Shown here piece by piece: positions 30,416-32,326 of a DNA stretch of 40,313 nt. The stretch is from Neophaeotheca triangularis (lineage: Eukaryota). A program made the position numbers and the translations under genes. Location of the stretch: positions 124,001 through 164,313 of the forward strand of contig BAAIJX010000050.1 in NCBI GenBank assembly GCA_054600435.1. Reading direction: 5' to 3'. Numbering within the stretch: the stretch's first letter is position 1; each line of letters begins with the position of its first letter. The notes under the pieces are model-generated. The model was not told the DNA's origin. It ran no database searches and worked only from the letters and a program-made list of their open reading frames with translations.

Positions 30416-32053
30416 TTACCGGCCGAACTTCCTCAACTCGAGCCAACGAAGAGGCGGAAAAACAAGGCCAGCCCAGGCGAAACCAACGTAATTCCCCATC
30501 TACACACAGCAAATATTAGCAAGATTCAAGATAGCCGGGATCCGTCGCAATCCACTCACATCAGCCCCGTAATCCCCAACCAGCCCAGCCAAAGGCCCAA
30601 TATACCAAACCTGAGCCATGCACAAGATCGAGCCGATCCAGCCTACCAGAAAAGCAACGAGCGCAGCGATCCCAACAGGCAGTTTCGAGCGATCGTCCCA
30701 AGCGTCCCAATTCCAGCCTAGCTTCTTCCAACGGCGGAAGATGAGGTGCTCTTCCAGGCTGATGACCGCCCAACTGGAGACCCAGTACCCCATCAAGGCG
30801 AGGAAGTTGGTGAAGATGTCCGCCAAATTCGAGCGTCCGGCAATCGCACAGACCGTGTAGATGATGACGCCTATGGTGTTCCAGATTACTCGAGGTATCT
30901 TTTCGGGATATCGGCCTAGTACTTGGAAGTCCACTGAGGTGGAGTAGGTTGGGGGGATCATGTTGGCAATCAGTCCGAGGGCTATGACGACGCTGCAGAA
31001 GGAGCCAAAAGTGCCAATGGGGTTGAAGCCTTCCACTATGAGCGATCCCGGTGAGACGTTGTAGGCGTTTGACCAAGCTTGATTGTTGAGGATGCCAGAG
31101 CCGAGGCCAATGCCGACCATGAACGCGAAGGAGAAGCCTAAGCTCAAACCGATCATGGTGACCGTGAAGACTTTCCAGCGAGGCGTGTGTTCTGGGTAGT
31201 AGACAAAGTAGTCCGCTGCTCCGCCGGCCCAAGTGATGGCTGCCGCCAGACACAAACTGAAGAAGGAAAGGCGATTGCCGGCGATTGTTCTAGCAGTCTC
31301 CCCCTCTGAAGGTTTTGCGTCGAGATCAAAGTTTGGGCCTGCGACCCCTGCCAGGATAGCAAGTACTATCAGCTGCGGTAGCCAAGCGTAGCGCTCGTAG
31401 AGGTGGAAGATACTGTAGCCGAACGTCGTGATGACCCACGTGATGACAGCCACGATCACAATCCCCACAATGACGCTGAGGTCCCCGCTGACACTGACAG
31501 CGCTTATGATTTGTCCAGCTACCACCGCATCAATGAGAGCGTATCCAAGGAGAACGATGATGTTTAGGATGACAACCAGCTTGGCCGGCCACCAACCCAT
31601 AGTGTAGCGTGCAAACACCATACTCCTGTTGCCACTCCTAGGGCCAAAAGTCGCAATGTACGCAGGTACTAGGGACCCGACGAGCATCCCAAAGATGGCG
31701 CAGAGGCTGCTGTCCAGGAAGCTGAGGTAAAAGACTGCAGGCCCGAGCATTCCAAGGGTGACGTTGTTGGCAACGAGGTTGAAGCTGAACCACAAGACAC
31801 CGATCTGGGAGTAGCCTAGCTGGCTGAGGTCATGGCGTTCCTCTGGCAATACACGCTGGATGCCGCGTGCTTCGAGGTTGTACCGGATCAAGACGCGCTC
31901 AAAAGCTTGGAGGTTGCGTTTAAAGGCGCCGTCTGTCGATGCAGAGTTGTTGTTGACATCGTTGGAGGTTCTGACGGTAGGCGCCAGATTTGGCGCGCCT
32001 TTCTCGACATCACGGGTGCTCCGACGAGCGGGTTGCTGAGGTTGATCCTCCAT
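30416..32053 (-). CDS. NCS1-family purine-cytosine permease-like transporter (Fcy2/Tpn1 type), ~525 aa; coding exons 32053-30560, 30499-30416; predicted thiamine/HMP-related substrate
   Basis: Motifs EARGIQRVLPEER, WFSFNL, GPRSGNRSMVFARYTMGWW, HLYERYAW, AADYFVYYP, NFLALMGYW and MAQVWYIGP, ending in PPLRWLELRKFGR after intron 30559-30500. The substrate is an inference from the riboswitch in its leader. Confidence 0.95.
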
Positions 32054-32059
32054 GGTCAC

Positions 32060-32326
32060 CTGTGAGTAGCATCAGCAAAAGTATCAACTTGTCAGGGGAG
32101 CATGATCCTTTCGCCGGCATTGTCCGGTGCAAGTTCAAGAAAGCCGTATAATCTCAGCAAGACCTTCCAGTGCTGCGCCTTCTCCGGACGATACCTAGTC
32201 TTGGGTGGAAGGGCGCAGTCAACTGGTTGAGATCGAGCACCGGCTCATGCATATACGTCTCAAGAATACCTTGACCTCTAGACATGATCCTGCCAGCTGT
32301 CATCTTTGCTGCCTGGGAAAGCGTAC
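32060..32326 (-). other. 5'-UTR intron of the NCS1 permease with two candidate 5' splice sites (GTACGC at 32326, AAG|GTATTC at 32269) and one 3' splice site (CACAG ending at 32060)
   Basis: A TTTTGCTGAT branch point and CACAG| acceptor lie 6 nt upstream of the main ATG. Two same-frame upstream ATGs (32303, 32285) sit between the two donors. Confidence 0.75.
32100..32250 (-). ncRNA. TPP (thiamine pyrophosphate) riboswitch aptamer, fungal intronic type (cis-regulatory RNA)
   Basis: The minus strand reads GCAUGA-GCCGGUGC...(long P3)...GCUGAGAUUAUACGGC-UUUCUUGAA-CUU-GCA-CCGG-ACAAUG-CCGG-CGA-AAG-GA-UCAUGC. Pairings seen by eye are P1 GCAUGA/UCAUGC, P2 GCCG/CGGC, P3 including CUGCGCC/GGCGCAG and CCAGU/ACUGG, P4 CUU/AAG and P5 CCGG/CCGG. 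The hallmark CUGAGA, AUAC and GCGAAAGGA elements are present. Confidence 0.92.

Follow-up and report, generated by a model that had tools for sequence, protein, structure and literature searches.

A CA bulge in the pyrophosphate-sensor arm of a putative TPP riboswitch preceding an NCS1 permease gene in the black yeast Neophaeotheca triangularis

The TPP riboswitch of Neurospora crassa NMT1 was reportedly described by Cheah and co-workers in 2007. For fungi, a Type I arrangement in a 5'-UTR intron is described for NMT1, THI4 and transporter genes (Mukherjee et al., PMC5882874, section 7), and the same article reports TPP riboswitches with uORF-based splicing control on nucleoside-transporter families. 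The nucleoside-transporter class of fungal TPP riboswitches was named TPPsw-NUC by Vargas-Junior et al. (PMC11683625). A published Bipolaris member of the nucleoside-transporter type begins at GTACGG (supplement, PMC5882874).

The highly conserved nucleotides of the pyrophosphate-sensor arm are given as U59, G60, C77, G78 and A80, position 61 not being among them, and the metal that bridges the pyrophosphate is engaged by G60, C77 and G78 (PMC3764141). The spacing of 18 nt from G to G across the arm is described as conserved (PMC5882874). In Escherichia coli thiM, A61 stacks on G60 and C63, bonds C77 and contacts a Mg2+ ion; the A61U substitution shifts the TPP affinity from 0.74 to 2200 nM, a loss of about 3000-fold, and A61G (M1) switches better yet binds TPP with lower affinity (bioRxiv 10.1101/2025.01.21.634073).

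The stretch of DNA analysed here (the window, 40,313 nt) carries a permease gene whose leader holds such an element on the minus strand. The features of the gene and its leader are listed below; the branch site and the acceptor were assigned from the sequence alone.

30503–32053, minus strand: main open reading frame, NCS1 (Fcy/Tpn1-like) permease (Pfam PF02133, E = 2.7e-16), with its AUG at 32053–32051
32321–32326, minus strand: putative distal donor S1, GUACGC, upstream of both upstream AUGs (from sequence)
32303–32301 and 32285–32283, minus strand: two upstream AUGs (uAUGs), between S1 and S2
32276–32270 and 32269–32264, minus strand: putative proximal donor S2, exon side GGUCAAG followed by GUAUUC
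32075–32071, minus strand: branch-site-like CUGAU
32061–32060, minus strand: putative 3' splice acceptor AG

Over 97% of its length the permease shows 100% identity to an NCBI hypothetical protein from N. triangularis, a Dothideomycete and black yeast. Its next relatives (P0002–P0004) are 77–81% identical, and named homologues are annotated as purine-cytosine permease FCY21 or vitamin B6 transporter. The last 27 or so amino acids of the open frame (30503–30590, minus strand) diverge from the consensus of the homologues, and the frame encodes 517 residues where the NCBI protein has 525, which makes a short intron near the 3' end likely.

The motif AGUACG occurs at the matching relative position in orthologous leaders as the counterpart of S1, and at S2 most orthologues read GAUCAAG on the exon side, followed by GUA. 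When the exons were joined in a script, the form spliced at S1 contained no upstream AUG within the 94 nt examined; the form spliced at S2 contained uORFs of 27 and 21 amino acids, in the +1 frame and overlapping the main AUG. Two putative donors flanking the uORF start, together with one acceptor just 5' of the main AUG, correspond to the Type I layout, and the aptamer would lie in a 5'-UTR intron of the NCS1 permease gene.

The aptamer itself was delimited as follows.

About 32250–32100, minus strand: whole TPP aptamer, 151 nt (sequence, Rfam, our own model and fold)
32250–32245 and 32105–32100, minus strand: P1, 5' strand GCAUGA and 3' strand UCAUGC (sequence and fold)
32245–32237, minus strand: P2 5' strand and base of P3, AGCCG-G-U-GC
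32238–32157, minus strand: long P3, about 80 nt, seen in the fold
32157–32152, minus strand: CUGAGA, pyrimidine-sensor junction
32146–32142, minus strand: P2 3' strand, CGGCU
32133–32130, minus strand: P4 5' strand, CUUG
32129–32128, minus strand: J4/5 bulge, CA
32127–32124, minus strand: P5 5' strand, CCGG
32123–32118, minus strand: L5, ACAAUG
32117–32114, minus strand: P5 3' strand, CCGG
32113–32112, minus strand: J5/4, CG
32111–32108, minus strand: P4 3' strand, AAAG

P1 comprises 6 bp, P2 5 bp, P4 3 bp plus a G.A pair and P5 4 bp. ACGGCU (32147–32142) follows the pyrimidine-sensor junction, so that CUGAGA and ACGG are both in place; in an alignment of 27 orthologous sequences the columns of these two motifs are invariant. 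The arm, at 32133–32108 of the minus strand, reads CUUG-CA-CCGG-ACAAUG-CCGG-CG-AAAG, letter for letter as in a preliminary description of the locus, and the fungal consensus given there (CUU-GAU-CUGG-AUAAU.-CCAG-CGA-AAG) fits most of the orthologous leaders that were fetched. P5 pairing is preserved, as had been proposed, by a two-sided change from CUGG/CCAG in relatives to CCGG/CCGG in the window. The pyrophosphate-sensor contacts are kept, with G60 at 32130 and C77–G78 at 32113–32112, and the G-to-G distance (32130 to 32112) is 18 nt. The same aptamer layout was found in 38 other distinct orthologous aptamers.

Identification as a TPP aptamer was borne out by a match to Rfam RF00059 (THI element) and by a covariance model of the aptamer 3' half that we built ourselves. 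The RF00059 match scored 38.5 bits (E = 5.1e-6) against a gathering score of 54.3, no match being obtained at the gathering level, and the Rfam alignment misplaces P1 and P2 inside the long P3; our model gave 64.3 bits (E = 1.4e-15). Eight orthologous loci were also scanned with RF00059. Five gave matches, all sub-gathering at 45.8–50.9 bits, namely the canonical loci L004, L032, L050 and L038 (46–51 bits) and the GCU-type L024, and L001, L005 and L012 gave none at E <= 0.001. Since canonical orthologues are equally sub-threshold, the Rfam shortfall is typical of the class and is not due to the bulge; with canonical members of the fungal transporter class at 46–51 bits, scans at the gathering level will miss the class.

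The preliminary description had singled out J4/5, which reads GCA where GAU is usual, and its frequency was determined in three samples. For the fungal orthologues, a metagenome scan with the permease alignment yielded 79 loci, in 51 of which the 3'-half covariance model placed an aptamer upstream of the gene at E <= 1e-3; these collapse to 34 distinct aptamers besides that of the window, a count that leaves out the relatives P0002–P0004. None of the 34 has the exact CA bulge. The first bulge position is A in 27 of them, mostly as AU, and C in six (14 of 51 by locus), three with CU (L001, L002 and L024) and three with a lone C (L005, L012 and L013); the remaining one, L016, is without the bulge stretch. 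After five loci with less than 60% coverage and eight duplicates had been dropped, 67 distinct protein rows went into a quick IQ-TREE. All C-type rows fall within one starred clade of 29 rows, where they are mixed with seven A-type rows; the bulge label requires four changes on this tree, at least three of them forced by starred branches. CA would be the form taken in this lineage by a polymorphism found across the clade, with C in the first place of the bulge followed by U, A or nothing.

One subclade (L005, L006, L012 and L013) has a single-C bulge about 30–40 nt after CTGAGA, and its G-to-G spacing in the pyrophosphate pocket is 17 nt instead of 18. Some orthologous aptamers are damaged: L020 (2400–2455) reads CGGAGA and has lost GCG, L016 (2407–2452) is without the P4 5' strand and L058 (2271–2325) reads CUAAGA. 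Such sequences suggest that certain lineages have lost the riboswitch.

Supplement file 3 of PMC11683625 contains GAACTTGA at least 108 times and GAACTTGC at least three times, these string counts being lower bounds because the FASTA text is line-wrapped. Two of the GAACTTGC cases, both GCU, belong to transporter-type aptamers, one from Cladosporium cladosporioides and one from C. sphaerospermum; the third occurrence lies within a Mucor P3. The other C. cladosporioides aptamers shown in this supplement read GAU or GAA, and that of Hortaea werneckii reads GAA; Cladosporium does not appear in the main text of the article.

For prokaryotes, a pattern with the bulge left free was used. All 116 matches listed could be parsed, with the following bulges.

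AU: 86 of the 116 matches listed
AA: 10
U: 5
AC: 4
A: 3
CU: 2
CA: 2
CC, UC, AGA and CUU: 1 each

A bulge other than AU was thus present in 30 of the 116 prokaryotic matches listed, as it is in the window. Six of the 116 have C at the first bulge position; they belong to five phyla (Alphaproteobacteria, Binatia, Actinomycetota with two, Planctomycetota and Bacteroidota). Among the matches listed, position 79 is A in all six C-type aptamers against 35 of the 110 others (Fisher p = 0.0015). These C61/A79 aptamers (L109, L143, L146, L178, L187 and L188) each read CGAAGG. A79 is also found in the window (32111) and in all fungal C-type aptamers, and most fungal aptamers carry A79 anyway. Four of five prokaryotic C-type aptamers examined exceed the Rfam cut-off. 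The open reading frames downstream are as follows.

CU-type aptamer: ThiC (the sole TPP aptamer found in that genome)
CU-type aptamer: ThiG
CA-type aptamer: TonB-dependent receptor
CA-type aptamer: ECF-type permease component
CC-type aptamer: open reading frame without a family

The frequency of GCA, which the preliminary description had left to be checked, proved to be low: exact CA is rare in these samples (0 of 34 other distinct orthologues and 2 of the 116 prokaryotic matches listed). Judged by these samples, AU at J4/5 is a consensus and not a defining feature of the aptamer, and C at the first bulge position is a recurrent, tolerated natural variant of the soft part of the pocket. The J4/5 bulge is, on the same comparison, a variable and soft part of an otherwise rigid pyrophosphate pocket.

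A sequencing error was considered as the source of the CA bulge and is unlikely, as the contig of a second sample agrees (contigs, not raw reads, were compared). Assembly X1, perhaps the one from which the window came, shows no difference from it. The second sample (X2), from the same organism and study, has one contig over 31900–32422 (523 bases) with nine differences, none within 32100–32160 and none within 32237–32243. Two of the X2 differences, at 32287 and 32290, stand shortly 5' of the second uAUG, and three more, at 32057, 32064 and 32071, lie near the acceptor and the branch site; none alters the AG, the uAUGs or either donor.

Taken together, the locus is best explained as a working TPP riboswitch of the nucleoside-transporter class that would act by control of splicing, that tolerates the CA bulge and whose ligand is still TPP; judging by the sequence evidence, we put the probability of this reading at roughly 0.7. 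The aptamer would most likely be a TPP sensor of the ordinary kind. Judging from the sequence and from the Type I switches already described, splicing at low TPP would take place at the distal donor S1, both uAUGs would be removed with the intron and the permease would be translated. At high TPP the folded aptamer would free the proximal donor S2; use of S2 would retain the uAUGs, the out-of-frame uORF would overlap the main AUG and expression would fall.

The pairing between the arm and S2 was compared across the orthologues. In AU-type orthologues the S2 exon side GAUCAAG pairs with CUUGAUC, which is P4, the bulge and the first P5 base, and the contiguous helix that masks S2 has a median of 7 bp (range 0–11, n = 25); a comparison of L019 with L023 gave two-sided differences further into P5 within the S2–arm pairing. 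All seven distinct C-type leaders have an S2 helix of only 4–5 contiguous bp, with 5 in L012 and 4 in the other six, the window included. The contiguous register ends there because C stands opposite U. In the window, three further pairs (A-U, C-G and C-G) with GGUCAAG form only with the bulge C looped out, and the best duplex of S2 with the arm (-9.7 kcal/mol) is no better than those of shuffled arms (z = -0.1). As the bulge letters also pair with S2 in AU-type orthologues, a change in them bears on ligand sensing and at the same time on the expression platform, and the CA variant may tune the affinity or weaken the S2-masking helix.

The motif GAGUAGC is kept in the uORF of many orthologues, among them L034, L035, L050, L051, L053 and L063; it lies after the uAUG and 5' of S2, and appears to be the complement of GCUACU beside the branch site. 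Its counterpart in the window is CAGCAAA (32313–32307), complementary to UUUGCUG (32079–32073). Pairing of the S1–S2 interval with the branch-site region was tried and found no support: in a crude duplex test, in which several intron tails were mis-cut, the median z was 0.08 and z fell below -2 in 2 of 28 cases.

Several other explanations of the CA bulge were weighed. The C-type bulge might mark a markedly weaker or retuned sensor, such that the transporter would be repressed only at much higher TPP, or one whose preferred ligand is thiamine in a less phosphorylated form, or a precursor; we regard this as unlikely. The roughly 3000-fold loss in thiM A61U and the part played by A61 in stacking, in bonding C77 and in Mg2+ contact (bioRxiv 10.1101/2025.01.21.634073) speak for it and mean that normal affinity cannot be assumed; weaker TPP binding by the CA variant is possible. 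It would also fit that in C. cladosporioides GCU occurs only in the transporter-type aptamer, the other listed ones reading GAU or GAA, and that transport genes follow the two aptamers with exact CA among the 116 prokaryotic matches listed. The preliminary description had held that the junction coordinating Mg2+ and pyrophosphate differs, which is right for the two bulged letters (CA in place of AU) but not for the reported contacts, as G60, C77 and G78 are unchanged; the ligand is therefore most likely still TPP. Moreover, CU-type aptamers precede thiC and thiG, that at thiC being the sole TPP aptamer found in its genome, which argues for ordinary TPP sensing. The shift in ligand preference suggested earlier (TMP, thiamine or HMP-PP) thus gained no support, altered ligand identity being unsupported by the intact contacts and by the genes that C-type aptamers precede, and no TPP-aptamer subclass with an altered ligand is described among the papers listed in the literature search. 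The thiM result may not transfer in any case, since A79 is present in the window and in all six prokaryotic C-type aptamers listed, whereas thiM has U79; 'A61C' was not found in the literature searched, where only A61U and A61G appear as measured in thiM. A and C have been swapped at least three times within one clade of the quick tree, as expected of a nearly neutral site. A broader form of the idea, which we think improbable, is that in a Dothideomycete clade the stacking adenine of the pocket has become C in aptamers of NCS1 transporters, the second bulge letter then varying freely or being lost, while aptamers of biosynthetic genes in the same genomes keep AU, the former being retuned sensors. 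If this were so and thiM A61U carried over, the transporter aptamers would by nature bind TPP with low affinity, or would sense less phosphorylated thiamine, and the importer would stay on until the cell was well supplied; it would amount to gene-specific retuning of a eukaryotic riboswitch pocket, with C61 together with A79 (in bacteria) as a structural signature.

The preliminary description had also drawn attention to a possible competing helix of 7 bp, and GCACCGG (32130–32124) is indeed the exact reverse complement of the following segment.

32237–32243, minus strand: CCGGUGC, 5' partner of the competing helix, comprising the P2 5' strand and the first P3 pair

That this helix is a functional ligand-free fold and part of the switch is improbable, in spite of the exact complementarity of its arms. 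In RNAfold calculations on the isolated free aptamer it is thermodynamically competitive, as had been surmised, its mean pair probability being 0.52 and that of P5 0.47, and it appears in both the MFE and the centroid folds of the 276-nt intron, the overall stability of which is unremarkable (z = -1.02). When the bulge was changed to AU in the script, the competing helix fell to 0.00 and P5 to 0.28, the latter because the palindromic CCGG of P5 pairs elsewhere in P2. Against a function stands the probability of 0.00–0.01 given by RNAfold for the helix in all 38 other distinct orthologous aptamers, the GCU and single-C types included, with neither conservation nor covariation; the helix is thus probably a lineage accident, and the proposed extra fold bears no sign of selection. 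CCGGUG, being part of P2, is fixed in all orthologous aptamers of the fold comparison, so that the match hinges on three free positions, which by our own arithmetic amounts to about 1/64 per lineage or about 0.6 expected in 39 lineages, and one in 39 is close to chance. The 5' arm and its native P2/P3 partners would also be transcribed before the competing strand, in which case P2 should form first. X2 is unchanged in both arms and hence uninformative on the helix. Least probable of all, to the point of being hardly credible, is an aptamer that is decaying and no longer regulates. The sub-threshold RF00059 score, the weakened S2 pairing, the predicted mis-fold (about half of the ligand-free ensemble in a non-native helix, RNAfold) and the degenerate orthologous leaders L020 and L016 could be read that way; but canonical orthologues score equally low with Rfam, no damage is seen in the core motifs, in either donor, in the uAUGs or in the acceptor, P5 has changed on both sides, and two samples with nine differences in 523 bases have none in the arm.

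The preferred reading, a working TPP riboswitch with a tolerated CA bulge, can be set beside the described systems. With the TPPsw-NUC and Type I examples of PMC11683625 and PMC5882874 the window has in common the NCS1 gene family downstream and the leader order S1, uAUG, S2, aptamer and acceptor. The aptamer sequence of the nucleoside-transporter orthologues matches that of the window except in P3 and the bulge; against the class, the window has CA rather than AU, CCGG/CCGG rather than CUGG/CCAG in P5 and GGUCAAG rather than GAUCAAG on the exon side of S2. The NMT1 switch of N. crassa has a uORF between two alternative donors of a 5'-UTR intron (PMC5882874, section 7), an arrangement that the putative donors of the window share. 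In AU-type orthologues the 5' strand of P4/P5 can pair with the region of the proximal donor, as in the NMT1 model; the window departs from that model, its masking helix having 4 contiguous bp and three more only with the bulge C looped out. N. crassa NCU01977 (Li and Breaker, 2013, PMC3597705) likewise combines a transporter gene, alternative 5' splice sites and an alternative pairing partner; unlike the 5'-UTR intron of the window, however, its switch lies in an internal intron of about 550–650 nt, the 3' side of P1 pairs with a distant alpha element (RGCGGYRRY) and the gene belongs to the urea-transporter class. The pocket of E. coli thiM agrees with that of the window in G60, a two-nucleotide bulge at 61–62, C77 and G78 (bioRxiv 10.1101/2025.01.21.634073); thiM has an AU bulge and U79, the window a CA bulge and A79.

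On the present evidence the locus calls for no more than routine annotation: a TPP riboswitch belonging to the transporter class already described, together with splice sites and a uORF as its platform, in a little-studied black yeast. Its comparative value is modest: C at the first bulge position arose repeatedly, and always with A79 among the prokaryotic matches listed. The natural aptamers with AU, CU, C and CA would bear on whether evolution sets the TPP threshold at the bulge.
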